64,000 nt of DNA from assembly GCA_965225625.1 (NCBI GenBank), contig CBDDBH010000002.1:7156-71155 (forward strand), written 5' to 3'. The position numbers were made by a program, and so were the translations under genes. The stretch comes from Gammaproteobacteria bacterium (GTDB lineage Bacteria > Pseudomonadota > Gammaproteobacteria > JADZEE01). Below are positions 4,228 through 21,136 of the stretch, in pieces (within the stretch, counting starts at the first letter, position 1; each line of letters starts with the position of its first letter). The notes beneath the pieces are model-generated. The model worked only from the letters and a program-made list of their open reading frames with translations, searched no databases and had not been told where the DNA came from.

Positions 4228-4291
4228 CGTATGCTCCCGTTCGGATGCTATTATCGACTGCGACGGCGCCGACTCCTAGGCACAGAATCCA

Positions 4292-4699: not shown

Positions 4700-4704
4700 C
4701 TTAT

Positions 4705-4721
4705 TTACCTCTCATCCGACC
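4705..4721. repeat. Half copy of the TTACCCCTCATCCGACC repeat family
   Basis: ttacctctcatccgacc between two convergent stop codons; one mismatch to the left arm of the 46987 palindrome. Confidence 0.6.
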
Positions 4722-4723
4722 AA

Positions 4724-6202
4724 CTACGCCACGGCAGTTTTCCCCGGCGCCTCCGGCACATCGTAGCTCGACATCAGTTCGTCCACGTACCCATCGAACA
4801 TCGCCCAAGGTGCTTCGCGAAAACTGTGGTTGCGTATGATGAATGACGCACCGGCGTAAAACTTCTCATACTGTTGATGGCGGCCGGCGAACTCGCTGCC
4901 GACAATATCCCACACCAGTTTAAACAGCTTGATACGCTCCAACGCCGGTAACTGTGGCGTTTGCCAGTATTGTTCGAACTTCTCGCGCAAGGCGTCGTCG
5001 TGCATGACGCTGACGCTCGCGGGCATTTGAAACACGCCGCCGCCGGACAGTTCGCGTAAGGTATCAATAAGTTCAGAGTGCGTTTGCGTACACCAATGCA
5101 GGGCCGCATACATCATGCGGCGGTTGAAGGTCTTGAAACCCTGCGGCCAGTCCTCGGCGGCTTCGATCTGACCGCAAACCATACCGGCAAGCCCAGCTTC
5201 CAACGCCGCTAGCTTTCCCAGTGTTTCTCTAACCGCGGGAACTTTGTCGGCGCCGGTCGACTTCACAACCTTGCTCGCCAAACCGATGATCAACTTGAGC
5301 TTCGACAGGAAACGGACGTTGGATTGATGATTGCCGTAGCAATGCGATGGTGTCTGGATATAAATGTTACGGGACAAATCAGGATCGTCCATTACAAACA
5401 CCCGTTCCCACGGCACTTTGACGTTATCGCACATGACCATGCTGTCGGTCTCGTCGAAACGCCAACTCAGCGGACTATCGAATTCGTTGGCAGCGTTCAG
5501 TTCCAACGGTTGCCGCGACCACAACGTGAGTCCCGGGGTATTGACGGGTACCGCACAGGTCACCGCCTGCTTGGTCTGGCTGGATGCGAGCGGAATCAGA
5601 TTACCTATCCAGATCTCATTGGCGAGCACGCCGCCGGTTGCGAGCATTTTCATGCCGGAGACAACGATACCGTCGTCCTCTTCGTTCACCACCTGCAGAG
5701 ATGGAATAGGCAGATTCTGGCGTTCGTAATACTCGGGGTCACGCGCCGCCTGCGGCGGCAGAACGGCATACACCGGATAGACATCGTTCTTTTTCAAATG
5801 CGCGTAGTAGCTCAGCAGGTTGTCACTGAAATTCCGGTTGTCCGTGTTTAGTATTTCAGGCGCCATCGCCATGCCGGTGACGAAGCTTGCAACATGGTCA
5901 GGCGAGCGACCAAACATGCCGTAACTTACGTCGGCTATAACCTGATGAACCCGCATGCGTTTGCGCAGATCCTCGCGCGAACGCGCCTGCAGAAAGTACG
6001 CTGAATAGCGCTCGCCATCTTCCTCGAAGGTCAAGTCGTCACGGTGTTCAGGTGCTGCTTTTACGTCATACATGGAAGCGACGGTACGCGCCGCTTTCGC
6101 AAAGGCCGGATGCGTGGTTACGTCGTCGACCTTCTCATTACCGATATAAACAACCCGGCCGTCGCGCAATTGTTCCAAATGTTCACTGCCTGTTTTCAAC
6201 AT
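4724..6202 (-). CDS. 4-hydroxyphenylacetate 3-hydroxylase (HpaB/TftD/PvcC) family flavin-dependent monooxygenase, oxygenase component
   Basis: LRDGRVVYIGNEKVDDVTTHPAF, GRSPDHV, RFDETDS, GSEFAGRHQQYEKFYAG motifs; 492 aa. Confidence 0.9.
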   Translation of the reverse strand: MLKTGSEHLEQLRDGRVVYIGNEKVDDVTTHPAFAKAARTVASMYDVKAAPEHRDDLTFEEDGERYSAYFLQARSREDLRKRMRVHQVIADVSYGMFGRSPDHVASFVTGMAMAPEILNTDNRNFSDNLLSYYAHLKKNDVYPVYAVLPPQAARDPEYYERQNLPIPSLQVVNEEDDGIVVSGMKMLATGGVLANEIWIGNLIPLASSQTKQAVTCAVPVNTPGLTLWSRQPLELNAANEFDSPLSWRFDETDSMVMCDNVKVPWERVFVMDDPDLSRNIYIQTPSHCYGNHQSNVRFLSKLKLIIGLASKVVKSTGADKVPAVRETLGKLAALEAGLAGMVCGQIEAAEDWPQGFKTFNRRMMYAALHWCTQTHSELIDTLRELSGGGVFQMPASVSVMHDDALREKFEQYWQTPQLPALERIKLFKLVWDIVGSEFAGRHQQYEKFYAGASFIIRNHSFREAPWAMFDGYVDELMSSYDVPEAPGKTAVA

Positions 6203-6217
6203 GCCTATGACTCCCGC

Positions 6218-6787
6218 TTAATTTGCTTCCTGCTCACGTTGATGTTCATGGAGCGAAATCTCGAGTTTCGCGCGCGCCGTCGAGCCGATAAAGCGCTCAA
6301 GCAGACGGGCCAGCAGCGTGAACTCTTCCCGCGTGAATTCGTCGAACAAAATATTGTTGATGCGCTGTCTAAACGGCGCCAGCTTCTCCAGCGCCGCCAT
6401 CCCTGCGCGCGTTAGCGTCACCAATACGCCACGGGCGTCAGCTGGGTTCGGCTGCTTAATCAACAAACCCTTGTCAATTAATTTGTTCGCTTCAACCGTC
6501 ACGTGCGATGAGGCGACGTGCAGGTACTGCGCCAATGTTTTGATCCCCACACCGCCAGCCTCCTGGTAGTGAGCTGTGGCGATCAGGATGAAGTACTGCG
6601 GTCCAGTGGTACCGATTTCCCGCCCAAATGCTTCACGCACCTCTTGAAAGCGCGTCGCGGTGACAAACAGCTCGTAAATTACTTCGCGGAAACGATCATC
6701 GCGTTTGTTACTAAGCAACTGAGAGCGTGTGACACTCAGTGGCGGTCGGTAGTCTACGTGTGCTTTTCTGCCGGCGCTTGTAACCAT
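6218..6787 (-). CDS. MarR family transcriptional regulator
   Basis: wHTH with LIDKGLLIKQPNPADARGVLVTLT; divergent from 6924. Confidence 0.85.
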   Translation of the reverse strand: MVTSAGRKAHVDYRPPLSVTRSQLLSNKRDDRFREVIYELFVTATRFQEVREAFGREIGTTGPQYFILIATAHYQEAGGVGIKTLAQYLHVASSHVTVEANKLIDKGLLIKQPNPADARGVLVTLTRAGMAALEKLAPFRQRINNILFDEFTREEFTLLARLLERFIGSTARAKLEISLHEHQREQEAN

Positions 6788-6803
6788 AGTTGAGATATTT
6801 AGT

Positions 6804-6836
6804 TATGTAACATACATATTTAACCTATACATATAT
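6804..6836. promoter_or_regulatory. Candidate MarR operator/divergent promoter
   Basis: AT-rich tract with the pseudo-palindrome TATGT-A-ACATA and repeated ATACATAT between divergent genes. Confidence 0.35.
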
Positions 6837-6923
6837 ACTTGTCAATCATCGGCTGCCAACGTCGACGCGGTGCGACAGAACAGGTAGCATTTAGCAATCA
6901 GCTGCCAAGTTCAGGAGTAGGTC

Positions 6924-7556
6924 ATGCCCGATTTTCCCGTCGTTCGCGAAAAGATTGCGTTGCTCAACGTTGATATGCAGAACTGTTTCGTCGAAAACTC
7001 GCCGGTAGCCGCACCCGGTGGTCTCGAGGTGCTTGAGAAGATCAACAAATTGATCGGCGCGTGTCGTGAAGCTGGCATACAAATCATTCACGCCGAGCAT
7101 GTACTCAGGCCAGACGGCAGCAACATGGGCGTGCTGGGCGAAGTCGTACCGGTGACACGTGAGGGTTTGATAAATAAAGACAGAGATACCGCACAACTGC
7201 ATCCGGATCTGGCCGTCGCCGATGACGATATTATCCTCGATAAACCGCGTTTCGGTGCGTTTCATGGAACTGATCTCGAACTCATTCTGCGCAACAAAGG
7301 CATCGATACCATCATCGTGACCGGCATTGCCACCAACGTCTGCTGCGACACGACGGCGCGTCAGGCGAATATGGCCGATTTCCGTGTGTTTTTCCTGAGC
7401 GACGGTAATGCGACATTCCCAATCGGGGACGTTACAGCCGAAGAGATCCAGCGGGTGACGTGTGCAACCATGGGTGCATTGTTTGGTCAGGTGATCACTG
7501 TCGATGAAATGATCGACAAGATCCGCTCGGCAAGCGCGACCTCCAACGCAGCGTAG
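6924..7556 (+). CDS. Isochorismatase/cysteine hydrolase family amidohydrolase
   Basis: VDMQNCF, KPRFGAFHGTDL, GIATNVCCDTTAR catalytic Asp-Lys-Cys pattern. Confidence 0.9.
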   Translation: MPDFPVVREKIALLNVDMQNCFVENSPVAAPGGLEVLEKINKLIGACREAGIQIIHAEHVLRPDGSNMGVLGEVVPVTREGLINKDRDTAQLHPDLAVADDDIILDKPRFGAFHGTDLELILRNKGIDTIIVTGIATNVCCDTTARQANMADFRVFFLSDGNATFPIGDVTAEEIQRVTCATMGALFGQVITVDEMIDKIRSASATSNAA

Positions 7557-7578
7557 TTAATCCGCGTAGCTACAGCGG

Positions 7579-8340
7579 CTAGCCCGCGAGGAGCTTCCCG
7601 AATCCCGGGATCGCGTCACCGGCACCTACGCTCTGCAGGCTATGCCAAGCCACTGACGAGTTACTGGTAATGACCGGCTTGCCGAGTTCTGCCTCTAGCG
7701 GTTCGATCACATCGGTCGCGCGAATAGCAGCGCAACTGATGAAATAGGCATCGCCATCCTCGCGCCTGTTCGCGACGACGTAGCGCCGCCAATCTTCTGG
7801 TGACGGATCAAACATGCCGACACCACTGTTTATGCCCATCCCCGATTCATGCACTACCCGAAACCCAGCCCTTTCGAGGAATTCAACCTCACGCTGATTG
7901 ATGTGTGGCGGATACGGCGTCAGTAGCACGACACTGCTAGCGCCCAGCATCTTTAGCGCCGCGACGACCGCTTTGGAGGTGGTGGTCGCAGGCAGTCCGG
8001 TCGCCGCGCGGATCCGCTCGACAATTTCGTCGTCGGCCCCCTCATAGTATGTAGTTGCCGCAGTGCAATGAAACACAATCAAATCCACATTGGCTTGCGC
8101 CAATAGTGCTGCCCCCTCCTCTGCCCGATCAGCCATGCCGAGCACATCCGCCTCGTCGGAGCTGAGCAATTCAAGGCGGGTCGTGTGGAAGGTCACCCCT
8201 GGTGGGGCGATAGCATGGAACTGCGGTTCACTTGTCGTGTTCGTTGACGGGAGCAAAATGCCGATCTTTGCGCGGGTGCCGTATTGAATGGTCATTTGTG
8301 AGTTTGGATCCTTTTGGCGGGGAATCTCCACACTTTTCAT
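7579..8340 (-). CDS. Maleate cis-trans isomerase/Asp-Glu racemase family protein
   Basis: KIGILLPSTN, FHCTAAT, LLTPYP, ISCAAIR (two catalytic Cys), VITSNS; the start may instead be ATG at 8295. Confidence 0.85.
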   Translation of the reverse strand: MKSVEIPRQKDPNSQMTIQYGTRAKIGILLPSTNTTSEPQFHAIAPPGVTFHTTRLELLSSDEADVLGMADRAEEGAALLAQANVDLIVFHCTAATTYYEGADDEIVERIRAATGLPATTTSKAVVAALKMLGASSVVLLTPYPPHINQREVEFLERAGFRVVHESGMGINSGVGMFDPSPEDWRRYVVANRREDGDAYFISCAAIRATDVIEPLEAELGKPVITSNSSVAWHSLQSVGAGDAIPGFGKLLAG

Positions 8341-8356
8341 GGCGGAGCACCTATTT

Positions 8357-8592
8357 TATTACCCCTCATCCTGACCTGTTCTAGAACTCGGCTACGCCTC
8401 GTTAAGAACCCCCGGCCCTTGCGGGAGAGGGGTTGGCAGGTAATTGCTCCTCGACTTTGGCCTCCTGCGTCGTTCTACCTCGTCCATCCGTGGACTCGTC
8501 GGCTCTGGCTCCTGATTCGCTCTACCTCGTCCATCCCTGGACTCGTGCATTACCTGCATTTCCGCCATCCCTGGCGGTCGGGTGAGGGGTTT
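8357..8592. repeat. Composite cluster of REP-like hairpin repeats
   Basis: 26-bp near-identical direct repeats at 8474-8499 and 8521-8546; cccctcatcc...gggagagggg element; gccatccctggcggtcgggtgagggg arm matching the 46987 and 59237 palindromes. Confidence 0.75.
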
Positions 8593-8641
8593 TGAAATTC
8601 AGTAATCCCTCCGTAGTTTTACCGCGGATCTTTGCTTTACG

Positions 8642-10300
8642 TTACACAGCCGCCTTGTTCTGCGCTTCCATCGCTTCGGGGAACCACGGAGGAATGAAGT
8701 CGAACATTTTGTCGCCTAACCACGCCGGTGCAATATTTCGGCCCCAGTTGAGAATGATCTCGCGCACGCACTCGTCGGTAAAATCGATATTCGCCGCCGG
8801 GCCGCCCCAACCGTAAACCGTATGCGGTAACCAATCGGCCTTTTGTACCAGTTCGCACACGCGCGCCGCTCCCTCCTGCGCTGTCATCTCGCCACGCTCA
8901 ACGGCCGCTTGTGCATCTTCCAGTGTCACCAAAACTTCTTCTACCTTCTCCGTGTAGGGTGCGGATATATCGGCGCGCACTGACTCATCAATACGATCGA
9001 AAAAAGACGAATCGCCCATCTTGGTCTTGATAACGCCGCGCATGAAGTAGAGATCGCCCAACAATTTGCTGCCCAGCCACAAATTGAACCAGGCATTCCA
9101 CATGCTGAAGTCGCCCATGGAGTTATACGCGGACGCGACCATGCGGTCAGTAGCGTTAATCTGCTCGTGCTGCATCTCGTTGAGATGTTCGAAACGCGAC
9201 AGCGAGTAATCGTTGTCCTTCACTGCGTCTTCGATAGCTCGGGCGAGGTAATACAACGATTCGAACGAGTTGATCATGCCGCGCGACAACAGCGCGTCTA
9301 CAAAGCCATAGGCGTGGCTCATCATGACATAGCCAGGTCCGGCGCTCTGGCTCGATGAATATTGCAACTGCCCGGTACCTATCCACGGGCGCACAGGTTC
9401 GATGTTCTCGAAGTGATCCTTGACCGACGGGAACTTGGCTACGAAGTGCCAGAATTCTTCCTCCGCGGTCATGTCATCCGGTTTTGGATATTTCTTAATA
9501 TCCAGCGACAGGCCGATGCTTGCCAACTCGCTTTCGGACACTGCGGTATTGGTAAACGGAATTACCCACCACCAGCCGCCGTCAAAAACGTGGTGCAAGG
9601 TGCCATCGTTATAACCGTAGCGCTCGCTCGGGCGCACAACACCCTCGAGTTCGTCGTAGCTTTTCAAACCTTTGACATGCGCAAAAATGGTACGGCTGTG
9701 GGCGCGCATTTTTGTGGGATCGGTGCGCAAGCCCAACTTGTCCGCTACCGGGGAGCGAAACCCCGAGCCGTCAATGAGCAGCTTGGCTTTGAAGGTATCG
9801 CCGGATGCCGTGCTCAGCGTGACATTATTTTCCTGTAAATCGAAGTCGACGATATCGGTCTCGTCCATATAGTCCGCGCCGCATGACTGCGCCACCTTGA
9901 CCATATGATGGTCGACCTCGGAACGCATGAAATGGCTTTCGGAGCTGAACGGTACCTCGGGAGCAATTACTTGATGCGACTCGCTTTGATCCTGGCGTTG
10001 TCCTTCGCGGTGATACGCAAAGCTGATTGTGCGCTTTTGCCCGCAAACTTTGGACACCCGTTCATTGACTCGATCGACCGAGGTAATGTCGTTTATCTCT
10101 GGCAAATTGAAACGTTCGCCTAGCAGCAACATCCACATGGTCGATTGCGGCAACATGGCTTCGCCAATGGCAAATCGCGGGTGCTTGCCTTTTTCGATTA
10201 CCAGTATCCTCGCGCCCATGCGGGCAATGATGCCGGCGAGGATGGCGCCGGGTAACCCGGAACCCAGCATGACGATGTCAAATTCTTTCTGTGTTGCCAT
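8642..10300 (-). CDS. PrnC-like flavin-dependent halogenase
   Basis: GSGLPG FAD motif, HPRFAIGE, conserved Lys in GQKRT (K89), GTLHHVFDGGWWWVIPF (WxWxIP), GFVDALLSRG; colinear with PrnC as I recall it; GGAG RBS before ATG 10300. Confidence 0.85.
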   Translation of the reverse strand: MATQKEFDIVMLGSGLPGAILAGIIARMGARILVIEKGKHPRFAIGEAMLPQSTMWMLLLGERFNLPEINDITSVDRVNERVSKVCGQKRTISFAYHREGQRQDQSESHQVIAPEVPFSSESHFMRSEVDHHMVKVAQSCGADYMDETDIVDFDLQENNVTLSTASGDTFKAKLLIDGSGFRSPVADKLGLRTDPTKMRAHSRTIFAHVKGLKSYDELEGVVRPSERYGYNDGTLHHVFDGGWWWVIPFTNTAVSESELASIGLSLDIKKYPKPDDMTAEEEFWHFVAKFPSVKDHFENIEPVRPWIGTGQLQYSSSQSAGPGYVMMSHAYGFVDALLSRGMINSFESLYYLARAIEDAVKDNDYSLSRFEHLNEMQHEQINATDRMVASAYNSMGDFSMWNAWFNLWLGSKLLGDLYFMRGVIKTKMGDSSFFDRIDESVRADISAPYTEKVEEVLVTLEDAQAAVERGEMTAQEGAARVCELVQKADWLPHTVYGWGGPAANIDFTDECVREIILNWGRNIAPAWLGDKMFDFIPPWFPEAMEAQNKAAV

Positions 10301-10315
10301 TGCTGATACTCCCAC

Positions 10316-10924
10316 TTATAGGTCGACGTAACCCGTGTTCTCGAGCAAATGCGCCTCGATCGGGATCTTCAGGCTATCGTGAATAGTGTTGTACATCTTC
10401 CAAAAGCCGACAACGCCGGCGAGTTCGACGATCTGGGGCGGGCTTAAATGCTCGGCCAGTCGCTCACGGATCTCATCGGGTACGTTGGACGGATCCATCG
10501 ACGCTGCACCGACAAAATCGAAACACACGCGTTCGAACTCGTCTTCCGGCGGCGCCTCGCCGGTCAACATGGCGCTCAGATCCTCGTCCGCCATACCCCA
10601 ACCCTCGGCGCCCGGGCCTTGCGGCGCTTTCAGGATGCCGCAGTGGTGCGCGGTACAGTAGGTACAGCCGTTGATTTTGCTCGCAACCGCACCGAGCCGC
10701 CGTTTTAGGTTTTGATCCAGCGTCGAGCTTTTGTCTCGCATTATCCGGCTGTTGAGAGCGAATAAGGTCTCAGCGATTTCGGGCCGATGCATATAAAACT
10801 TCAAAGCATTGGGCAAAAAACCCATGCGTTCCTTATACGGCCCGACGATGGGTTCCAGCGATTCGGGAACGTCCTCCACATAGGGAATGAACGGTTGGTC
10901 TTCAACGGCGGCTGTTTCTGTCAT
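10316..10924 (-). CDS. AhpD/carboxymuconolactone decarboxylase family protein (Bmp8-like motif set)
   Basis: SKINGCTYCTAHH (C87, C90, H93) and C-terminal FWKMYN (N179). Confidence 0.8.
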   Translation of the reverse strand: MTETAAVEDQPFIPYVEDVPESLEPIVGPYKERMGFLPNALKFYMHRPEIAETLFALNSRIMRDKSSTLDQNLKRRLGAVASKINGCTYCTAHHCGILKAPQGPGAEGWGMADEDLSAMLTGEAPPEDEFERVCFDFVGAASMDPSNVPDEIRERLAEHLSPPQIVELAGVVGFWKMYNTIHDSLKIPIEAHLLENTGYVDL

Positions 10925-10939
10925 TGTTTTAACCTCGGC

Positions 10940-12346
10940 TTACAAATAATCCGCTAAGTTAACTTTGCCCCAATTCTTGGGCCAGGCACGTTTAAAATCC
11001 TTGGCGTCATACCGGCCTTTTATGGTCGCATCGATCCCGACTTTGGCGACGGTGCGCCACGGCGCGTGGCCCTCGACTGGTTGCGCCGACGGATCGTAGA
11101 GAGAACCGCGGGTATTGTTGACGACGATCATGTCACGCCCCGGATCGCAACGCGTGGCGATAGCATGATAGACGTCGGCGGGATCATCAATATCAGTATC
11201 GGGACTTATCGCGACCACCATCTTGGTATTGATCCAGGGTGCGCCCATGGTCTGCATGAGCGCGTCGTTGACGAACCCATCTCGCGGCGCCTCGACCTGG
11301 ATAATGCACGACAGCGCGGCGCCCCAGGGAGGAAAGCGAACGTCCGTGACCTTCAGTCCGATCTCGCTGATCCGGTTGTACAGTACAGCTTCATGACAAA
11401 GCCGGGGAAGTACAACGTGATCCGTGTTCGCGGTGGTCTGATGCCGCCGGTACACCGGCTTGCCGCTGCGCAGGGTCATCGCCGTGACGTGGACCTCTGG
11501 CAACCGTTGGGCCGGCGGCATCCAGTAAGTCGATGGGCCGACCGACGGGCCGTAATCGAACAAATCTTTCAGATTAACGATGCCCTCGACAACGATCTCG
11601 GCATGCGCAGGGACCGTGAGATCGATGGTCTCACAGCGCACCATTTCGATATCCATGTCCATGATGGTGCCAACCATTTCCATCTCGCCCCACAGATCCA
11701 TGTGTAGCCCGGAGAACTGCGCCATGATCTCGTAAGCCGGCGGCACGCCGAAGATCAGCGCCACCGGCATTTCAGTCTCGCCCATGTCGCGATACTTGCG
11801 CATGACCACGTGACTGTGGGGCGTGACGAAACTGATTAATCCTCGACGTGGTCCCGTGGGTGTCGTGCCGGCATTGCAGGAGTTGTAAAAACCAGTCTCC
11901 GGATCGCGAATGATGTTCATCGGCGACATATAGGTATCGGGTTCCAGATCGGAGTGAATGGACGCGGGTAATTTAGTCCAGTCCACCTCATCACCAATTA
12001 ACACGACATCTTTAACCGGCCCGGTATCCACGTCTACAAATCCGCGTGGGGCTTTACGCAGGCGTTGCGCCAGCGTTGGCAGGTAATCTTCCTCGCTGAC
12101 CCCAAGCGCGCGACACTGCGAGCGTCGATCTCTGACCATGATGTCGCAGACGCTGAAATCCGGGAACTCTTTGATATTGTCGAACACGATCGGCCCCGGG
12201 CTCTGCGATACGAGCGCGCCGATATCGTCGATATTTACCGGTTTGGTGATACGCGTGACAATGTCAGCGTTGGTTTCGAGATAGCCGCGCAGATCCGGAT
12301 CCAGCGTCGGTTTCCCCGATTCGATGTGTGCTTGTGCCGTTGCCAT
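10940..12346 (-). CDS. UbiD-family protein with degenerate active site
   Basis: DPETGFYN, PVALIFG, CETIDLTVPAHAEIVVEG, IDATIK; lacks the canonical Arg and the EGPFGE motif. Confidence 0.85.
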   Translation of the reverse strand: MATAQAHIESGKPTLDPDLRGYLETNADIVTRITKPVNIDDIGALVSQSPGPIVFDNIKEFPDFSVCDIMVRDRRSQCRALGVSEEDYLPTLAQRLRKAPRGFVDVDTGPVKDVVLIGDEVDWTKLPASIHSDLEPDTYMSPMNIIRDPETGFYNSCNAGTTPTGPRRGLISFVTPHSHVVMRKYRDMGETEMPVALIFGVPPAYEIMAQFSGLHMDLWGEMEMVGTIMDMDIEMVRCETIDLTVPAHAEIVVEGIVNLKDLFDYGPSVGPSTYWMPPAQRLPEVHVTAMTLRSGKPVYRRHQTTANTDHVVLPRLCHEAVLYNRISEIGLKVTDVRFPPWGAALSCIIQVEAPRDGFVNDALMQTMGAPWINTKMVVAISPDTDIDDPADVYHAIATRCDPGRDMIVVNNTRGSLYDPSAQPVEGHAPWRTVAKVGIDATIKGRYDAKDFKRAWPKNWGKVNLADYL

Positions 12347-12385
12347 GTTGGCCTCCAGATTTTTTTGGTTTGACTGAGTTCGCGC

Positions 12386-12694
12386 TTACGCTTCGATCGC
12401 TACCTGCACATCGTCACCTTCGATGCGCACTTTGTGGACCGGCACCGGCGCACCCATCGTCGTGGTGCCGGTCTCCAGAGAGAACTCCCAGCCGTGCAGG
12501 GGACAGATCACCTGGCCGTTATTGACCCATCCATCGGCCAGTGGCCCTCCCTGGTGCGGACACAGATTGTCGATGGCGCGCACCGCATCGCCGACGCGAA
12601 ACAACGCGACCTGCCGGCCATCGACCATTACACACTTGCCTTCGTCTTCCTCCAAATCACTGAGTGACGCCACAGTTTGGAATTCCATACTCAT
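12386..12694 (-). CDS. Rieske [2Fe-2S] ferredoxin
   Basis: CPHQGGPL...CPLHGWEF; ATGA overlap with the upstream UbiD stop. Confidence 0.9.
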   Translation of the reverse strand: MSMEFQTVASLSDLEEDEGKCVMVDGRQVALFRVGDAVRAIDNLCPHQGGPLADGWVNNGQVICPLHGWEFSLETGTTTMGAPVPVHKVRIEGDDVQVAIEA

Positions 12695-14208
12695 TCCTCC
12701 AACGCACCGCCACCCACCGTTGGTTTTTTGCCGGGTTTAGAAATGATCCCCTCCTCATGACTGACAATGCGCTCCATGGGTAGCTCCGCACCGTCGAGGT
12801 TATCGACAAAATCGCTCAATTCGACCTTGCCCTGGCCCATCGGCCAGGTGCGATGCAGTTCCCACCAATCCGTATCGTCTTTAGGCGGCAGCACGCTCGC
12901 ATCGATGATGGCCTTGCCATTTACACGGAACATACCTCCAGGCACGCGCTCCGCGCTGGGCATCAATGGTGATGCGCGTAACTCGGGAATAATCGTCGTA
13001 TCCGCGCCCCAGTTGGCGCGGATAGTCATCGCCCAAACTACATCGCGCGCATCATAGATGTTGACGTCGCGGTTTACCGCGACCGCCACCTGGCTCATGA
13101 ATCCGAGCGTGGTATTTTCCATGGTCAGCATTTTCATCAGCGCGTCACGTGCGTCGCCGCGTGCCCGTGGCGTCATCTGTACGATCCCGAATGCACAACC
13201 GCCCCAGGATGGAAAGTAGACATCGTGCACTTCAATCCCCATCTCGGTTAGCGCGGTGAACAAGCTGCCTTCGTTCGGCAGCATGGCCAAACGCTGGTGT
13301 TCGGTCCATACCGTCGATTGCACGTGCCGGTAAATCGGGTTCTTACGCATGGTGATCCGATCGACCCGGTATACCAGCGCCTTTTGTATTCCATCCCTGG
13401 ACATCGGCCCCGCGCAATAGGTACCCAGGTAATTACCAAAGGGTCCTTCGTTCTGCATCACCCCGGGCATGACAACGCCTTCCACAATGATTTCCGATGA
13501 CGCGGGCACGTCGATGTCGATGGTGTCGCACTTGACCAGTTCGGCTGGCTCGCCGAGGAAATTACCGGCGTAGTCGAGTTCTCCGCAATATGGGTGATGC
13601 ACGCTCAGTGAAGCAGTGACCTCCCAGGCGGGATGGGAACCGATAGACAGGGCCATGGGCATCGGCTCGCCGCGCGCGGCATATTTGCCGGCGATGCGTC
13701 CCACGTGCGGCGAAAAGATAAGAAATGGACAGTTCTTGCCATCGGTAATCTGGCTGCGCGGCCAGGTGGTGTTGTGCATCCCGGTATCCGGATCGACGAC
13801 GATACCCAGCGCGCTGCCCAGATAACGGCCACCGTCGAGTTCGGAATGATGCACGATCGGCAATCGTGACAGGTTGGCGTCATCGCCCTCCCATACAACT
13901 TCTTTTGCCGGCGAATCTTTGACGACGTTATGCGGCAACGGTCCCTTGTCGATGGCACTGGCAACGGCGCGCACGACATCCTCGCGATTTTCCACACCAA
14001 AGACAATGCGCTCCATATCGCGGTTATTGACCAGATTGGAAACCACGGTCCAATCTTCATAGCCCTTAACGTTCTCGAACAACATCGCCCTGTCGGACTG
14101 ATCGGCAAGCGCGGCCAGATTGGTTGACGGATCGACTTCCTTGGCCACGCGATACAAGCGGCCAGCCGCTTCAGCATCGTCGAGAAAACTGCGAAGACTT
14201 TTGGACAT
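12691..14208 (-). CDS. UbiD-family (prFMN-dependent) decarboxylase-like protein
   Basis: DGGRY, DPDTGMHNTTWPR, VPASSEIIVEG, EGPFGNYLGTY, IIDAS. Confidence 0.88.
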   Translation of the reverse strand: MSKSLRSFLDDAEAAGRLYRVAKEVDPSTNLAALADQSDRAMLFENVKGYEDWTVVSNLVNNRDMERIVFGVENREDVVRAVASAIDKGPLPHNVVKDSPAKEVVWEGDDANLSRLPIVHHSELDGGRYLGSALGIVVDPDTGMHNTTWPRSQITDGKNCPFLIFSPHVGRIAGKYAARGEPMPMALSIGSHPAWEVTASLSVHHPYCGELDYAGNFLGEPAELVKCDTIDIDVPASSEIIVEGVVMPGVMQNEGPFGNYLGTYCAGPMSRDGIQKALVYRVDRITMRKNPIYRHVQSTVWTEHQRLAMLPNEGSLFTALTEMGIEVHDVYFPSWGGCAFGIVQMTPRARGDARDALMKMLTMENTTLGFMSQVAVAVNRDVNIYDARDVVWAMTIRANWGADTTIIPELRASPLMPSAERVPGGMFRVNGKAIIDASVLPPKDDTDWWELHRTWPMGQGKVELSDFVDNLDGAELPMERIVSHEEGIISKPGKKPTVGGGALEE

Positions 14209-14276
14209 GCAACTACCCTCCTCGGACGTACGTTTTAATACCAGCGTTACTCATTCAGTAATTTAGATTGCGATTT

Positions 14277-14948
14277 TTAGATTGCCCGTCCAATCGAACG
14301 GCCGAATGATGCGATATGCGAGCGGATCGCAGCCGATGCTTTGTCGCTGTCATGGGCGGCAATCGCTTCGAACACTGCACGGTGCTCACGTTGAACTCGC
14401 TGTAATTGTTTAATATCGCTGAGCGAAACAAACCAGAAACGCAGAGCACGGTCGTGCAGACGCGAAAGCAGATCGGCCAGCACACGATTGCGCGCGGCGG
14501 CCGCGATCGCCTGATGAAACTCGCGATCCAAATCCATTAAGCCCTCGTGATCCCGCTGCTCGGTCAGCGGTACTGCGCGCTCCAGGATCTCGCGCATGCC
14601 CTCTATATCCTGAGCTGTCGCGCGTTCAGCCGCGAGCGCTGCACACAAGCCCTCATTGGGCGCCCGCACCTCGATCAAATCTTTCACTTCGTCCAGGGTT
14701 ATCGGGTTGACGACAACCCCCTTGCGCGGCAACACCTGAACCATCCCTTCCATATCCAGACGTTTCAGCGCCTGGTGCACCGGCATACGGCCCAATCCTA
14801 ACTCGAGACAGATCGAGGACTCATTCAGGTACGCGCCCGGGTGATACTTGAGCGTTATGATGCGCCGCTTTATCGCTTCGTAGGCGCGCTCCTGCAAGGA
14901 CTCGACCACGGCCCCATTAGCGCGTGCCAGTTGCCTGTTTTCGCGCAC
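14277..14948 (-). CDS. GntR/FCD family transcriptional regulator
   Basis: LQERAYEAIKRRII...LGLGRMPVHQALKRL HTH; FCD domain DREFHQAI; GTG start at 14948 chosen to avoid overlap with the cupin gene. Confidence 0.88.
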   Translation of the reverse strand: MRENRQLARANGAVVESLQERAYEAIKRRIITLKYHPGAYLNESSICLELGLGRMPVHQALKRLDMEGMVQVLPRKGVVVNPITLDEVKDLIEVRAPNEGLCAALAAERATAQDIEGMREILERAVPLTEQRDHEGLMDLDREFHQAIAAAARNRVLADLLSRLHDRALRFWFVSLSDIKQLQRVQREHRAVFEAIAAHDSDKASAAIRSHIASFGRSIGRAI

Positions 14949-14953
14949 GGGTA

Positions 14954-15346
14954 TCAATCGTCGCGCGGATCGTAATAATGCATTTCGAACATTACGCAAC
15001 CGTTTTCTGATTTGAACGGGCCGTGATGAGCGCCCGGCGGACGACAGGCGTAGGTCGGCGCGAAAAACTGCTCGCCGCCCTCGCCGTTCTCATCGTTGCC
15101 GACGATCAAATCCCCTTCGATCAGGTAGACCTCTTCCCAGTGATTGTGCACGAACGGAGCTTTGGAATAGGCACCTGGATCCAATCTCATTAGCCGTGAA
15201 CGGCTGCCGATCTTTCGCTTCTCGTCGATGTCACTGGTGAGGATCTTGTGCTGGAAGCTTGACGGATAACCTGGTGGGGTGACCCAGTCCGTGTCCGGAT
15301 CCAATCTCAGGAATTCCAAGTGCGGTTTACGTTTTTCATCAGCCAT
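14954..15346 (-). CDS. Cupin-domain protein (ChrR-like cupin)
   Basis: HNHWEEVYLIEGDL and YACRPPGAHHGPF cupin motifs. Confidence 0.8.
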   Translation of the reverse strand: MADEKRKPHLEFLRLDPDTDWVTPPGYPSSFQHKILTSDIDEKRKIGSRSRLMRLDPGAYSKAPFVHNHWEEVYLIEGDLIVGNDENGEGGEQFFAPTYACRPPGAHHGPFKSENGCVMFEMHYYDPRDD

Positions 15347-15362
15347 GGAGATCTCCTCTTTT

Positions 15363-16058
15363 TTATTCGGCTACAGGCAGCTCTCGGATCGAATAGTCAT
15401 GAGTCAGTTTGCGTCCCAATATGGGATCTTCGAGTTCCATCGTGAACGCCGCTGCAGGTCGTACCTTACCCTGAACCGCCAGTGTCCCACAGAACATGGC
15501 AGTACCGGGCGCGAGACCGCCATCGGCTTCGTCGTACAGGTTCATGAGTTCACTCGGCAATCGCAAGCCGCTAATCGAACCTTCTTGATAGATCACGCGG
15601 TCACCATCGATTTGTGCATAGGAACGCAGTACCAGATCGTCCCAATGTGCAACGACATCGTCGTACGACCACAGCGTATTGGAAATCGGCTTCGCACAGG
15701 CCTGCTTGGCCACGGTCACACTGTAAGTTTCTGCCTCACGATCGGTATGATCCGACCCCACGGCAACCCACAGTACATCGCCGATCTGCAATAACACTGC
15801 TTCGGCTTCACCACTGGACGCCGCGCCGGCGACGTCAATCGATTGTGCAGTCGTCAGCAGGCTTGCCGCGACCCGGTAAAACGTCGGCGTCGATTTCGGC
15901 CGTGGAATACCGAGCTCCTCGAGTTCGCGGATATGCGCCTCCATCGCCGCGGCGTCACGACCAGTCCAGCCGGCAATGACCAGGTCATCGATCGACGCAG
16001 TCAGCTCCGTTTCCAGCCCCTGGTGGATTGCGCTAAATGCGAGATTGTTGGCTGCCAT
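15363..16058 (-). CDS. DUF2848 family protein
   Basis: IAGWTGRD...HIRELEELG...P.FY, SSGEAE, GSDHTDR, KQACAKP pattern. Confidence 0.8.
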   Translation of the reverse strand: MAANNLAFSAIHQGLETELTASIDDLVIAGWTGRDAAAMEAHIRELEELGIPRPKSTPTFYRVAASLLTTAQSIDVAGAASSGEAEAVLLQIGDVLWVAVGSDHTDREAETYSVTVAKQACAKPISNTLWSYDDVVAHWDDLVLRSYAQIDGDRVIYQEGSISGLRLPSELMNLYDEADGGLAPGTAMFCGTLAVQGKVRPAAAFTMELEDPILGRKLTHDYSIRELPVAE

Positions 16059-16066
16059 CGATAACC

Positions 16067-17215
16067 TCAGAAAATATTCGAACGTTCGTACTGCACCGGC
16101 CAGCGTACATTATCCGCCTTCAAAGCTTTGGCGCTGCGCAAAGGCCACACCGGATCGGCGAGCAGCGTGCGGCCGAGCACGACGAGATCGGCCTGTCCGT
16201 TGGCGATAATCGATTCCGCCAGATCCGGACTGTTGATGAGACCAATGGCGCCTGTCGCCAATCCAGTTTCGGCTTTAATCCGTTGCGCGAACGCTACCTG
16301 ATAACCCGGATGGATTGGGATCTGCTGGCGTGGATCGTTACCGCCGGAGGAACAATCGATCAGATCCACATCGCCGCGTTCACGCAATCGTTGGCACAGC
16401 CAAAGACTATCCTCTAACGACCAGCCGCCTTCGACCCAATCCGTTACCGACAAGCGCAAAAACAGGGGCAGCTCAGCGGGCCACTCGTCGCGGATCGCAT
16501 CCAGCGTTTGCAGCAGCAGCCGTGCGCGATTGTCGATAGAGCCGCCGTACTCGTCAGTACGCTGATTGCTCAGCGGCGAGAGGAATTGGTGGAACAAATA
16601 CCCATGGGCTGCATGGACCTCCAGGATCCGAAATCCAGCTTCGCGCGCACGCCGCACCGCGGCTCGATAATCTTCGATGGACTGCGCAATGACCTCGGCA
16701 TCCATGGCTGTAGGCGTTGGCCAGCCTCGCGCATAGGCGAGCACACTTGGTGCAATCGGCAGCCAACCGCCCGCATCCACGGAAATCGGTTCGGTTCCCT
16801 CCCACGGACGGCCCACGGAAGCCTTGCGGCCGGCGTGGCCGAGTTGGATCGCCGGTACTGCGTTCTGAGTTTCAATGAATCTCACTATGCGGGCCAGCGC
16901 ATCACGTTGTTCGTCGTTCCACAATCCCAGGCAATGTCGGGTAATGCGGCCACGGGGCTCGGTATGCACTGCTTCCGTGGTGACGATGCCGGCGCCGCCG
17001 GCAGCGCGCGCACCCAGGTGCACGAAGTGCCAGTCATTGACTAGACCATCTTCGGCTGAGTATTGGCACATCGGCGACAGCATGATGCGATTCTTAATGA
17101 TCACCGAACGTATCGTCAGCGGGCGGAACAGATGAGGCTCCGGATCGCGACGCAATATCCGCCGGTCGTTCTCACCGGTCGTACGCGAATCGATTTGTAG
17201 CTCCGCGCGCGTCAA
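16067..17215 (-). CDS. NADH:flavin oxidoreductase (old yellow enzyme, YqjM/XenA type)
   Basis: SPMCQYSA, QLGHAGRKAS, HAAHGYLFHQFLSP, NQRTDEYGGS. Confidence 0.92.
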   Translation of the reverse strand: MTRAELQIDSRTTGENDRRILRRDPEPHLFRPLTIRSVIIKNRIMLSPMCQYSAEDGLVNDWHFVHLGARAAGGAGIVTTEAVHTEPRGRITRHCLGLWNDEQRDALARIVRFIETQNAVPAIQLGHAGRKASVGRPWEGTEPISVDAGGWLPIAPSVLAYARGWPTPTAMDAEVIAQSIEDYRAAVRRAREAGFRILEVHAAHGYLFHQFLSPLSNQRTDEYGGSIDNRARLLLQTLDAIRDEWPAELPLFLRLSVTDWVEGGWSLEDSLWLCQRLRERGDVDLIDCSSGGNDPRQQIPIHPGYQVAFAQRIKAETGLATGAIGLINSPDLAESIIANGQADLVVLGRTLLADPVWPLRSAKALKADNVRWPVQYERSNIF

Positions 17216-17544
17216 AAAATAGACTCCTTTTGCATCGCCTGGTGAAACACCTCGCCCGCGAATGCGGGGAAGCGCGCAAAGTCCTCCCGGGCCGCGGCTC
17301 GGGCGGGCGAACGTAGTGCCGCGTCCAGGGCGGTAGAGGATTCAAACTGCATTTGTGCGAGTAGGCACACCCCACCAGGATTAACAGGATAAGGGTCGCT
17401 GCTGTCCTGCGGCGTGTGTAGAGTGAGCGCCTCTATGCCAGGGAATTGCTTGAGAATTGCAGCGTGCTCTTGCCGGTAATAGTCGGTAAAACGTCGGGGA
17501 TTTTCGGCGGCACCCTGATAGCGCACGAAATACGATACTGACAT
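17212..17544 (-). CDS. EthD family protein
   Basis: 110 aa, FTDYYRQEHAAILKQFPG...AREDFARF; 4-bp overlap with the OYE gene. Confidence 0.75.
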   Translation of the reverse strand: MSVSYFVRYQGAAENPRRFTDYYRQEHAAILKQFPGIEALTLHTPQDSSDPYPVNPGGVCLLAQMQFESSTALDAALRSPARAAAREDFARFPAFAGEVFHQAMQKESIF

Positions 17545-17605
17545 TGCTGTTCTCTATCGGCTTGGTTTCGGCGCAAGAATAACAGCAAACCATGTGATGT
17601 GCACG

Positions 17606-17615
17606 TGATATATCA
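17606..17615. promoter_or_regulatory. Candidate GntR operator
   Basis: Perfect palindrome TGATATATCA in the divergent intergenic region upstream of the halogenase operon, which encodes a GntR. Confidence 0.45.
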
Positions 17616-17689: not shown

Positions 17690-19435
17690 ATGCTCAAAAA
17701 AGCCTCCGTCTACTCAGGCGCCGATCTGTTGTTGAATATTCTGCGCAACTACGGTGTCGAATACATCTTCTCTTCGCCCGGGACCGAATGGGCGCCCTTC
17801 TGGGAAGCACTGGCCCGTCAAAAAGGCGAAGGGCTCGATGGCCCGCAATATTTGAACACGCGCCACGAAGACATCGCGACCGGCATGGCGTTGGGCTATG
17901 GCAAAGCGACCAACAACTTCACGGTGTGCGTCATCCACTCCACCGTCGGCACTTTGCATGCGAGCATGGGGATACGCGCGGCCTACCAACAGAAAATTCC
18001 GATGTTGGTACTGTCGGGTGAGTCGGTCACCTTGGGCGAGGCGGGTCAGACCTGGGTGGGAGGACAATGGGAACGTTTTCTCACCGATTACGGCGGACCA
18101 GCGCGCCTGGTCGAACCGTTCGTAAAGTCGTCATTCAGCATCAACAGCGACACGTTATTACCTGGCACTATTCATCGAGCCTGCCGTATGGCCATGACCG
18201 CCCCGGCAGGCCCCGTGTTTCTGTCTGTTCCCTACGAGTACCTGGCGGCTCCGGCCATCGGGCCGGCGCCGGTCGCCTCCTCCATGCCGGTGCAAGCCAC
18301 CGCGGATCCAGCCGCACTGAAGCAGGCTGCTGCGATATTGGCGGGGAGCAAACGTCCGCTGCTCATAACCGAGAATCTCGGCCGCAACCCCGGTGCGGTG
18401 GCGGATCTTGTCGACCTCGCCGAGCTGCTTGGCGCACCGGTGGTCGAGAGCATGCATCCGGAACAGGTCAATTTCCCCAGACAACACGATCTGCACGGTG
18501 GCTTCGGCGTGCAGCCGTTTCTGCAAAAGTCCGACGCGGTACTTCTATTGGGTATGATCGGTTCTCCGTGGTATCCCGATACTGCGCAACGACCCAGTCA
18601 CACCCAGGTGATCGCAATTGGCGACGATCCTCTGCGCGAACGTGTTCCCTATAGCGCCATCGCGCCAGATCTGGTCATTACCGGCCGCAGCGATCAGGCC
18701 TTAGCGGAACTCAGGGATCTGGTGGCTGGCAAAATGCGTGGCAAAAAGAAGGCCGTAGCCGCGCGCCGCAAGACCATTGCGCGCACGAATAACGCGCGCC
18801 GCGCAAAGTGGCACCGCAACGCGCGTGCCCAGGCCAAGAACACGCCTATCGACATGCGCTGGTTTTGCGAGGAGCTCGCTGAGATGTTACCTGCCAACGC
18901 GATTATGGTAGATGAGACCATCGTGTCGCGCTCAACACTGCTCAATACGCTCGACCATCTGCAACCCGGTCACTTTTACGACGCTTTAAGCGGCGGCCTC
19001 GGACTTGGTCTCGGCGTGGGTCTGGGCGTTAAAGTCGCCAACCTGGACAAACCCGTCGTCACGGTCGTGGGTGACGGTACCTTCAACTACAACCCACCGC
19101 TCGCGGCTTTGGGATTCTGCCAGGAATACCGCGTACCCATGCTCATCATAATTGCCAATAACAACCGCTATCGCAGCATGCAAATGGCCGTAGAAAAAGA
19201 ATATCCAGACGGCTGGGCGGCACGCACAAACACCTACTTTGGCGCCCACATCTCACCGCGCGTCAACTATGCGGGAATGGCGGAGCTTGTCGGTGGTTAC
19301 GGTGAAACGGTCGAAGATCCTGCGGCGATCCGACCCGCGATAAACCGCGCATTGAAAGCACTAAAACAGGACCGGCCGGCGATACTCGATGTGATCATCG
19401 ATGATGAGTTGAAATTTCTTTCGAGTATTCATTAA
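17690..19435 (+). CDS. Thiamine diphosphate-dependent enzyme (benzoylformate decarboxylase/ALS-like)
   Basis: SSPGTE, RHEDIA catalytic Glu, GDGTFNY...NN ThDP motif. Confidence 0.88.
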   Translation: MLKKASVYSGADLLLNILRNYGVEYIFSSPGTEWAPFWEALARQKGEGLDGPQYLNTRHEDIATGMALGYGKATNNFTVCVIHSTVGTLHASMGIRAAYQQKIPMLVLSGESVTLGEAGQTWVGGQWERFLTDYGGPARLVEPFVKSSFSINSDTLLPGTIHRACRMAMTAPAGPVFLSVPYEYLAAPAIGPAPVASSMPVQATADPAALKQAAAILAGSKRPLLITENLGRNPGAVADLVDLAELLGAPVVESMHPEQVNFPRQHDLHGGFGVQPFLQKSDAVLLLGMIGSPWYPDTAQRPSHTQVIAIGDDPLRERVPYSAIAPDLVITGRSDQALAELRDLVAGKMRGKKKAVAARRKTIARTNNARRAKWHRNARAQAKNTPIDMRWFCEELAEMLPANAIMVDETIVSRSTLLNTLDHLQPGHFYDALSGGLGLGLGVGLGVKVANLDKPVVTVVGDGTFNYNPPLAALGFCQEYRVPMLIIIANNNRYRSMQMAVEKEYPDGWAARTNTYFGAHISPRVNYAGMAELVGGYGETVEDPAAIRPAINRALKALKQDRPAILDVIIDDELKFLSSIH

Positions 19436-19456
19436 CGCATCGCGGCGGGACCGCGA

Positions 19457-19840
19457 TTAGCCGGCGGCGTCTTTAGCGGTGTCGAGACGAGATGCGCCTG
19501 AACCCTTGACGCCTTCGTGCGTCTTGCGCACGCGCATGTGGTTGCCTTCAACAGTAACCTCGTAGCCACCGATATCTTCACCGGGTGCATTAACGCACTT
19601 TCCCGATTCCATCCGGTACACATAACCGTGGAGATTACATCTGAGCAACGAGCCATTACTCATCGGCATTCCGGTTTTCAACAGGTCCGCACGTCTGTGC
19701 GCGCAGAAGCGACCGACACCGTGGTATTTTTCTCCCGCTTTGTAAATCACTACCCTGTCGTCGCCGGCTTTAGCGGCGACCGGAAATTCTGTTGTCGAGG
19801 GGTCGATACCTTCCAGCTCAATCCAAACGTTGTCTTCCAT
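19457..19840 (-). CDS. Rieske [2Fe-2S] ferredoxin-like protein
   Basis: CAHRRADL...CNLHGYVY. Confidence 0.8.
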   Translation of the reverse strand: MEDNVWIELEGIDPSTTEFPVAAKAGDDRVVIYKAGEKYHGVGRFCAHRRADLLKTGMPMSNGSLLRCNLHGYVYRMESGKCVNAPGEDIGGYEVTVEGNHMRVRKTHEGVKGSGASRLDTAKDAAG

Positions 19841-19903
19841 CGCGTTCGCCGCTCCTCGTGTCTGCTTTGATTCAGGCGCTTCGCTCTTTGGCGAGCCCGG
19901 ATG

Positions 19904-20131
19904 TTAAACCAAGGCTTGGCATTTGCCCAGATGCGGCCACAGTTTAATCACCGACGGCAACAAGATCATGAATGACATCTGAAGCGCGTGCAGCTGCGTC
20001 CTGCCGATCGTCGAGATAAGTAGTCCCAAAGACAAGACTGTGACGATGAACACTGTCGCCAGCGCCTGTTCCGCCTCGGCGAGGTTGGCTCGAGTTGCGG
20101 CGACGTCTTCAATGCGGGTCCCTTCCTGCAA
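19904..20131 (-). pseudogene. Fused remnant of an HlyD-type adaptor and an ABC-2 permease
   Basis: QEGTRIEDVAATRANLAEAEQALA (HlyD coiled-coil-like) joined in frame to FIVTVLSLGLLISTIGRTQLHALQMSFMILLPS (ABC-2 permease-like). Confidence 0.65.
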
Positions 20132-20141
20132 GTGCTACGCC

Positions 20142-21122: not shown

Positions 21123-21136
21123 CGCGTTTGCCCGCG

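Follow-up and report, generated by a model that had tools for sequence, protein, structure and literature searches.

Flavin-dependent halogenases of the PrnC/PltM/CtcP clade act on free substrates and are told from monooxygenases by a WxWxIP motif together with a lysine. Research on UbiD enzymes centers on reversible (de)carboxylation, with CO2 fixation and biocatalysis in view, and phenylphosphate carboxylase is a two-UbiD system. An E(D)-R-E network is conserved through the UbiD family (PMC8988006). Positions 277 and 282 of Fdc1 both need an acidic residue, and activity is lost in the E282Q variant; the cofactor, prenylated flavin mononucleotide (prFMN), depends on R173 to mature oxidatively (PMC5818171). 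The monooxygenase for pyrrole-2-carboxylate is a group-D (HpaB-type) two-component enzyme (PMC6165268). Here, an operon of ten genes is analyzed which combines a PrnC-type halogenase with two UbiD paralogues and a Rieske protein; it is located in a stretch of 64,000 nt of the gammaproteobacterial contig CBDDBH010000002.1 (the window). The reading we favor, with about an even chance of being correct, is that of a conserved, GntR-controlled, inducible catabolic operon for an electron-rich, nitrogen-containing (hetero)aromatic acid, which would use non-canonical prFMN/Fe-S chemistry. Known families occur in a new combination, and the chance of truly new enzymology is sizeable. A characterized pathway of such composition, or one containing both a halogenase and a UbiD, was not found in the searchable literature, which agrees with the preliminary description of this DNA, where the composition had been put forward as a candidate new one.

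Gene content and layout of the operon

The region 8642-17544 contains ten open reading frames (ORFs) on the minus strand, the families of which were assigned using Pfam and NCBIfam. From EthD to the halogenase, the features are:

17212-17544, minus strand: EthD-family protein, 110 aa (PF07110, 28.6 bits; TIGR02118, 46 bits)
16067-17215, minus strand: old yellow enzyme (OYE)-type FMN oxidoreductase (Oxidored_FMN), 382 aa (PF00724, 7e-66)
15363-16058, minus strand: DUF2848 protein, 231 aa, a putative metal enzyme of FAH fold (PF11010, 2e-77)
14954-15346, minus strand: small Cupin_7 protein, 130 aa (Pfam)
14277-14948, minus strand: GntR/FCD (FadR-subfamily) regulator inside the operon, GTG start, longest ORF from 14999 (PF00392 and PF07729)
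12691-14208, minus strand: UbiD-A, 505 aa (Pfam and NCBIfam)
12386-12694, minus strand: small NirD-like Rieske [2Fe-2S] protein, 102 aa (Pfam and NCBIfam)
10940-12346, minus strand: UbiD-B, 468 aa (Pfam)
10316-10924, minus strand: AhpD/CMD-fold 'peroxidase-related' protein, 202 aa (weak Pfam and NCBIfam scores)
8642-10300, minus strand: flavin-dependent halogenase (Trp_halogenase family), 552 aa from ATG 10300; longest ORF to 10315, 557 aa
17606-17615, no strand assigned: candidate GntR operator, palindrome TGATATATCA, 62 nt upstream of the EthD start

The ten minus-strand genes, their families, the tight spacing and the palindrome had all been described before and are present as claimed. The junctions from EthD to the halogenase measure -4, 8, 16, about 5, 68, -4, 39, 15 and 15 nt, which confirms overlaps or gaps of less than 70 bp (overlaps of 4 nt, gaps of 5-68 nt). 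These figures assume the likelier starts GTG 14948 for GntR and ATG 10300 for the halogenase, obtained by a start comparison; with the starts of the longest ORFs, the GntR and halogenase junctions become -46 and 0 nt. Given their overlap of 4 nt, EthD and OYE are probably translationally coupled. The G+C content is level across the cluster according to a scan of the window.

Conservation of the cluster in other genomes

Starting from the halogenase and UbiD-A, relatives were traced in public assemblies. The loci L017, L003, L009, L008 (= L013) and L030 each group orthologues of the full set of nine enzymes, with identities of 44-81%, and partial gene sets are present in L005, L011, L019 and L020. 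In all, the orthologues recur side by side in at least seven independent loci. The following arrangements were observed (MAG, metagenome-assembled genome):

L017 (JGI metagenome): exact window order from EthD to the halogenase, 54-81% identity; HpaB directly after the halogenase
L003 and L009 (metagenomes): UbiDA-Rieske-cupin-amidase-DUF2848-UbiDB-UbiX-tautomerase-EthD-OYE-AhpD-(LpdD)-flavin reductase-halogenase; adjoining XylR-type sigma-54 activator
L008 = L013 (gammaproteobacterial MAG RHO3_bin_19): gene set of L003/L009, halogenase moved upstream
L030 (994-kb metagenome contig): full set plus UbiX, CTP-dependent riboflavin kinase and DUF2390
L005 (metagenome): ferredoxin reductase-halogenase, XylR and UbiDA-Rieske only
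L020 (Binatia MAG): AhpD, amidases, DUF2848, cupin, DUF3179, UbiDA::Rieske fusion, UbiDB and EthD, followed by the contig end
L011 (alphaproteobacterial MAG): AhpD-EthD-OYE-cupin, DUF2848, ferredoxin reductase-UbiDA-Rieske and UbiX; halogenase and UbiDB absent in 21 kb
L018 (ENA/NCBI assembly, 778-kb contig): UbiDA-Rieske alone

Missing synteny in other genomes had been named in advance as a result that would speak against a pathway; the gene set clearly recurs as a unit. The cluster is firmly conserved over three lineages of uncultured bacteria, namely Gammaproteobacteria, Alphaproteobacteria and Binatia. We take the record names of RHO3_bin_19 to hint at a sponge microbiome study.

The surroundings of the clusters contain XylR-type sigma-54, GntR, MarR and AraC regulators, uptake genes (TonB, MFS, MMPL-BNR-DUF1329), amidases, and VanA-type and Rieske oxygenases. 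Genes for polyketide synthases (PKS), nonribosomal peptide synthetases or carrier proteins were absent from the examined neighborhoods, except beside one unlinked halogenase. Genes for the supply of prFMN accompany several relatives (UbiX in L003, L009, L011 and L030; LpdD in L003), which indicates that prFMN is in play.

UbiD-A, its Rieske partner and UbiD-B

The domains PF20695, PF01977 and PF20696 were all found in both UbiDs, the N domain of UbiD-B scoring below the cut-off. The ligands for cofactor phosphate and metal in UbiD-A (N146, H168 and E210) and the cofactor ligands in UbiD-B (N155, H177 and E221) are 100% conserved in their clades. At the triad positions, UbiD-A has E254-R151-N259, i.e. 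an Asn takes the place of the catalytic acid/base Glu. The motif reads EGPFGNY in UbiD-A and EGPFGEY in HmfF; BsdC and Fdc1 also have EGPFGE. This Asn is found in 44 of 45 database proteins with at least 53% identity, the remaining one having Asp, and relatives at 36-40% identity mostly have Glu (one Asn). In UbiD-B the triad is wholly lost (Y265-G160-G270; motif YGPSVGP). None of 121 UbiD-B sequences contains any of the triad residues; these are the window protein and 120 homologues of at least 64% identity (P0371-P0490), drawn from more than 1000 matches at E ≤ 1e-30. Such uniformity argues for strong selection on UbiD-B.

The best solved relative of both proteins is HmfF (6h6v), with 206.8 bits for UbiD-A and 148.2 bits for UbiD-B, versus 98.6 and 57.8 bits for HudA/PA0254 (4ip2). 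The two proteins had been linked to the decarboxylase HudA, which is not supported by this ranking and by the incomplete triad in both; since neither has an intact E(D)-R-E triad, 'two decarboxylases' is unlikely as stated. A HudA-like decarboxylase was ruled out by the similarity ranking and an HmfF-like furandicarboxylic acid decarboxylase by the absence of the catalytic Glu. Judged by their residues, both UbiD active sites are firmly predicted to exclude the textbook mechanism, and a classification as canonical decarboxylase suits neither protein.

The genes of UbiD-A and the Rieske protein overlap (by 4 nt in the window; also in several relatives) or are located a few bases apart, and seven natural UbiD-A::Rieske fusions in a single polypeptide were found. 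The CxH...CxxH ligands of the Rieske protein (C45, H47, C64 and H67) are conserved in 12 of 12 UbiD-A partners, fused domains included. A ferredoxin reductase gene adjoins UbiD-A/Rieske in L011, UbiD-A in L014 and the halogenase in L005, and is located within about 9 kb in L030. UbiD-A and the Rieske protein are thus predicted to act together. A Rieske partner or fusion has not been described for any UbiD in the searchable literature.

Within the UbiD-B clade, some sequence clusters hold hundreds of member sequences, and one of them lists Tara among its sources. Relatives of UbiD-B and of the AhpD protein were not present on 72,556 plasmids.

Halogenase

The halogenase has full-length matches to CtcP (E 5e-108) and PltM (1e-78) and is 33% identical to PrnC of the Burkholderia pyrrocinia prnABCD operon (E 5e-120). 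Numbered according to the 557-aa ORF, the FAD motif GSGLPG comprises residues 18-23, with G18, S19 and G20 invariant in 13 sequences. The WxWxIP motif (WWWVIP, 248-253) has W248, W250, I252 and P253 invariant in an alignment spanning the clade. The catalytic lysine K94 (GQKRT) is also invariant and corresponds in the alignments to that of CtcP (GQKSN) and PrnC (GIKRN). A Pro-to-Ala change in the FxxPxxSxG-like motif is common throughout the clade, Streptomyces members included, and is not special to this protein. With its motifs intact, the enzyme is predicted to be a genuine free-substrate flavin halogenase of the PrnC/PltM/CtcP clade and to halogenate, as had been proposed with reference to PrnC.

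In a maximum-likelihood tree, the cluster-linked halogenases of this clade (clade 1) and two close relatives form one group with a support of 100/100, which excludes PrnC as well as the actinobacterial, cyanobacterial, acidobacterial and haloarchaeal groups. Clade-1 halogenases were seen in six independent lineages. In L019 and L030, the cluster carries a second, unrelated halogenase clade, 20% identical to the window enzyme, with WxWxIP and FxDPxxSxG motifs of its own (best PDB matches 3nix, CmlS and PltA). A halogenase gene of either clade is present in 8 of the 10 loci with enough DNA visible. Two independent recruitments argue for halogenation as an integral part of the function and against a chance association. 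L003 and L009 have a flavin reductase gene immediately before the halogenase.

The halogenase gene is intact in metagenome DNA runs of low depth (depth 3-4; four runs); RNA runs covering the region were not found. On the 4.59-Mb contig of a close relative, it is recorded in two pieces of 156 aa and 355 aa (P0352 and P0358); either a frameshift in this copy or an error of the long-read assembly may explain this. One of the two close relatives follows a UbiD-like gene fragment at the contig start. The other, L001, is located beside a PKS and a sulfotransferase, with UbiDA-Rieske on another contig of that MAG. In the window, 956-2956 encodes a 666-aa protein with TPR repeats and a sulfotransferase domain, and a Sulfotransfer_4 gene is also found near the L001 halogenase.

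AhpD-like protein, EthD and OYE

The AhpD-like protein scores below the cut-offs of its families (CMD 22.1 bits, cut-off 23; TIGR01926 62 bits, cut-off 81.8). It has C87-x-x-C90 and H93/H94, a motif conserved in seven orthologues. The closest solved protein is the uncharacterized 2pfx (E 2e-10), followed by Bmp8 (E 3e-8, about 20% identity), with the CxxC of which (CMYC) C87 and C90 align. In the window as well as in L015 and L017, the gene adjoins the halogenase; elsewhere it is located beside EthD-OYE or UbiD-B. In L011 a partial homologue neighbors EthD-OYE and the 21 kb contain no halogenase, and in L020 the gene occupies the far end of the cluster, with no halogenase before the contig end. 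Of the link to Bmp8 made earlier, the membership in the same 'peroxidase-related' subfamily and the aligned CxxC stand; a specific kinship does not. Since AhpD tracks EthD-OYE, also in L011, and 2pfx is closer, a dedicated editing pair of halogenase and dehalogenase is unproven.

Orthologues of EthD are 51-64% identical (L003, L008, L009, L017 and L030) and those of OYE 66-79%. For the latter, NCBIfam ranks the OYE half of salicylyl-CoA 5-hydroxylase and NamA highest, although neither reaches its cut-off.

Cupin, DUF2848 and the HpaB group

The AlphaFold2 (AF2) model of DUF2848 has a predicted local distance difference test (pLDDT) value of 96 and a predicted template modeling score (pTM) of 0.92. 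A Foldseek search retrieved FAH-family structures with a probability of 1.0 and template modeling (TM) scores of 0.6-0.65 (40 structures at E ≤ 1e-5). E86 and D103 are invariant in 56 homologues and E84 is nearly so; their conservation suggests that they are the metal ligands of the FAH fold. In the cupin (AF2 pLDDT 90), H67, E71, E72 and H108 are invariant and constitute a putative metal site, and the model matches the small metal cupins TM1459, Dke1, KdgF and DddK. A literature description of DUF2848 was not found.

Homologues of both proteins are present in cultured Thioclava and Caballeronia sp. NK8 (cupin 57-59%, DUF2848 53-58% identical), in the following contexts:

Thioclava plasmid p2 (L046), 5145-9684: flavin reductase-HpaB-cupin-amidase-DUF2848 operon with ABC transporters
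Caballeronia sp. NK8 pNK83 (L047), 3860-9645: flavin reductase-HpaB-cupin-amidase-DUF2848, ABC transporters and a MarR homologous to that of the window
Pantoea dispersa (L048), 8209-11032: GntR next to DUF2848-amidase (GntR|DUF2848-amidase)

With this, DUF2848 gains a fold (FAH) and an HpaB-cupin-amidase context in culturable bacteria which are open to genetics. Beyond the 3' end of the operon, the window contains an HpaB group of its own:

4724-6202, minus strand: HpaB-family oxygenase, probable accessory gene, 2.44 kb from the halogenase stop
6218-6787, minus strand: MarR, probable accessory gene
6924-7556, plus strand: isochorismatase-family hydrolase, probable accessory gene

This trio, 1-2.4 kb from the halogenase, also follows the halogenase in L015, a 94%-identical relative. 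The HpaB-family gene had been noted at 2.4 kb, and it proved to be a true associate, being located directly after the halogenase in L017. As the group is kept in L015 and HpaB is merged into the operon in L017, both probably belong to the same system.

A lower pathway of the nicotinate type, with the isochorismatase as NicF-like and an Asp/Glu racemase as NicE-like enzyme, was rejected: NCBIfam matches were only sub-threshold (BiuH/RutB and EutA/arylmalonate decarboxylase), the racemase gene is missing in L015, and neither gene is conserved elsewhere. The racemase-family gene is located at 7579-8340. Together with about 8340-8640, this region has the look of a strain-variable junction; of the four runs, three gave assembled contigs beginning near 8561 and the fourth one ending at this point. 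The upstream genes for a thiamine pyrophosphate enzyme, a second Rieske protein, ApbA and a CoA ligase (17690-22654) were dropped as members since they are not conserved beside the cluster.

Promoter region and regulator

A consensus scan gave neither a convincing sigma-70 promoter nor a convincing terminator of the operon. The regulator contains both a winged helix-turn-helix and an FCD domain according to Pfam. The palindrome TGATATATCA is positioned within a divergent intergenic region of 145 nt and is the sole exact copy in the window. With one mismatch allowed, three matches were found in the window versus 1.25 expected, so the lone 10-mer is not significant. L017, the only other locus with a GntR gene inside the operon, has a regulator 71% identical at the same position; there, a perfect palindrome of 44 bp, about 45 nt ahead of EthD, has the 10-mer at its center. 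Since the same core is kept inside a palindrome at the equivalent place, TGATATATCA is a plausible candidate for the GntR operator.

Other genes beside the relatives

Membrane-anchored DUF3179 proteins, absent from the window, repeatedly adjoin ferredoxin reductase, halogenase or UbiD-A genes. They are found at:

L005, 7455-8666
L013, 6621-9915
L014, 5354-8637
L019, 5442-6695
L020, 8776-10011
L030, 5804-7051

In L014, a protein with a T4_deiodinase (iodothyronine deiodinase, 53 bits)/AhpC-TSA domain is encoded at 3759-4463, a possible second link to halogens. It has a flavin reductase gene as neighbor, and DUF3179-DUF3179-ferredoxin reductase-UbiD-A follow shortly downstream. In L030, UbiX, DUF2390 and the CTP-dependent riboflavin kinase come after the cluster (18060-19672). 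DUF2390 is fused to DUF2848 in other proteins (P0128 and P0135).

Proposed function and alternatives

The catabolic role, the substrate class, the order of steps and all chemistry proposed below are read from gene content, conservation, motifs, fusions and folds. The regulators, uptake genes and amidases, the hydrolase/cupin core and the lack of scaffold-building enzymes argue for inducible catabolism over biosynthesis. A nitrogen-containing (hetero)aromatic acid is favored as substrate by the amidases, by UbiDs of HmfF-like ancestry and by the electron-rich ring that the halogenase needs. Our single best guess is an acid like pyrrole-2-carboxylate or a hydroxypyridine acid; a substrate of the pyrrole-2-carboxylate type is possible and fits many weak pointers, none of them specific.

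Five modules would act in such a pathway. The small metal cupin and DUF2848, joined by an amidase in many relatives, would form the core of ring breakdown; in Thioclava and Caballeronia, a two-component HpaB-type monooxygenase would run this core. The EthD-OYE pair and the AhpD-like CxxC protein likely handle an activated C=C or quinoid intermediate, including a thiol-dependent step. UbiD-B, strongly conserved, is a predicted prFMN binder without the catalytic triad. UbiD-A, predicted to bind and mature prFMN and lacking the acid/base Glu, would work with the Rieske protein, for which a ferredoxin reductase would be the electron source in several relatives. The free-substrate flavin halogenase would halogenate the free ring as a real step of the pathway. 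UbiD-A/Rieske would then perform an electron-transfer-coupled prFMN reaction at the carbon bearing the carboxyl group or the halogen, instead of a plain decarboxylation.

A more far-reaching and rather doubtful proposal is that UbiD-A and its Rieske partner represent a new class of prFMN enzyme, in which a ferredoxin reductase would supply a [2Fe-2S] cluster that exchanges single electrons, in either direction, with the prenylated flavin, with UbiD-B as a second new prFMN protein. Asn in place of the proton-shuttling Glu would then permit redox chemistry instead of proton-coupled decarboxylation. Such an enzyme might, for example, reductively remove the halogen just installed by the co-encoded halogenase, or exchange it for CO2, i.e. 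cryptic halogenation would serve as C-H activation within a catabolic pathway. UbiD-B could be a carrier of cofactor or radicals, or a different catalyst.

Several observations weigh against the catabolic reading. L011 (21 kb) and L018 carry UbiD-A and Rieske without a halogenase, and the two closest relatives of the halogenase (71-73% identity) are located outside the cluster. UbiD-B homologues number more than 1000 versus 73 for UbiD-A; the two are therefore not obligate partners, and UbiD-B must often have other contexts. The 64-kb window does not encode a flavin reductase, UbiX, a ferredoxin reductase or the signature amidase, and LpdD and XylR are likewise not encoded there; these functions must be located elsewhere in the genome or be dispensable. 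We know of no catabolic role established for flavin halogenases, which are known only from biosynthesis.

The lack of a halogenase in L011 and L018 suits a halogen-free pathway for an aromatic acid, in which the halogenase would be a hydroxylase or a neighbor without a role, the UbiD pair a heteromeric decarboxylase, similar to phenylphosphate carboxylase or to VdcCD with a small metal subunit, and the Rieske protein structural only. Cupin/DUF2848 cores run by HpaB exist without a halogenase, and UbiDs with small metal-binding partners are known, e.g. VdcD (PMC8379154). Such a pathway would not account for the clade-wide invariance of the lysine and WxWxIP of the halogenase, the recruitment of two unrelated halogenase clades, the full conservation of the Rieske ligands next to adjacent ferredoxin reductases, or the clade-wide loss of the acid/base Glu in UbiD-A, and we consider it quite improbable. 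Even more so, we doubt that the genes constitute a small biosynthetic cluster making a halogenated phenol or pyrrole-type signal or defense compound from a primary aromatic acid. Every characterized relative of the halogenase is biosynthetic, PltM making chlorophloroglucinol signals as an analogous case; one close relative neighbors a PKS and a sulfotransferase, and UbiDs occur in some biosynthetic clusters (NCBIfam matches to BagN/FevL are weak). Scaffold-forming enzymes, carrier proteins and typical exporters are absent, however, the regulators (XylR, GntR-FCD, MarR) belong to a catabolic type that senses substrates, and uptake systems, amidases, and FAH-fold and cupin enzymes dominate the neighborhoods.

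The preliminary description had favored an operon which makes, edits or degrades halogenated pyrrole-2-carboxylates, e.g. bromopyrrole alkaloid fragments, with a PrnC/Bmp8-like pair, HudA-like UbiDs and an HpaB-type ring-opening feed. In its favor, the halogenase shares a clade with PrnC, an enzyme acting on free pyrrole, Bmp8 is the second-best PDB match of the AhpD protein with CxxC aligned, and an HpaB-type monooxygenase for pyrrole-2-carboxylate is known, HpaB being part of the L017 operon. One locus, that of RHO3_bin_19, may come from a sponge microbiome. An HpaB-cupin-amidase-FAH core would suit the opening of a lactam towards 2-oxoglutarate. This is opposed by the far higher scores of both UbiDs to HmfF than to HudA/PA0254 and their incomplete triads, and by an AhpD protein which is closer to 2pfx and co-varies with EthD-OYE (L011). 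Specific support for the proposed link to marine bromopyrroles was not found; an alphaproteobacterial MAG from a different project and a Binatia MAG carry the cluster as well. Taken together, we regard this proposal as unlikely. If the catabolic operon favored here is real, flavin halogenases gain a new physiological role, a catabolic-type cluster having recruited two unrelated clades, and UbiD clades with a cofactor site and without an intact triad are testable leads to new prFMN chemistry.

Comparison with known systems

Two-component HpaB-type pathways include those of pyrrole-2-carboxylate and chlorophenol monooxygenases. The operon shares with the HpaB-type pathways the cupin and DUF2848, with HpaB and MarR near the window operon and HpaB inside the L017 operon. 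The operons of Thioclava and Caballeronia, themselves uncharacterized, differ by having no UbiD, Rieske, halogenase, EthD, OYE or AhpD. Compared to PrnC, PltM and CtcP, the window enzyme has the same GxGxxG, catalytic lysine, WxWxIP and long C-terminal helical region, but forms a well-supported subclade of its own, and none of the prnABD, plt or ctc genes accompanies it in its catabolic-type operon. The AhpD protein resembles Bmp8 in length, subfamily and CxxC; it is a distant match only, and its gene follows EthD-OYE, not the halogenase.

HmfF and other UbiDs have the same three-domain architecture, and their N/H/E ligands are kept in UbiD-A and UbiD-B. They differ in that UbiD-A has the Asn and an obligate Rieske partner or fusion, and UbiD-B has lost Arg and both acids. 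Phenylphosphate carboxylase (Ppc) alpha/beta and VdcCD are similar in having two UbiD paralogues per operon and a small metal-binding partner beside a UbiD, respectively, although the NCBIfam scores of the window UbiDs to Ppc alpha/beta are far below cut-off. In contrast to both systems, this operon has a Rieske [2Fe-2S] protein instead of a Zn-ribbon as partner, relatives encode ferredoxin reductases in the vicinity, and UbiD-A and UbiD-B also occur apart.

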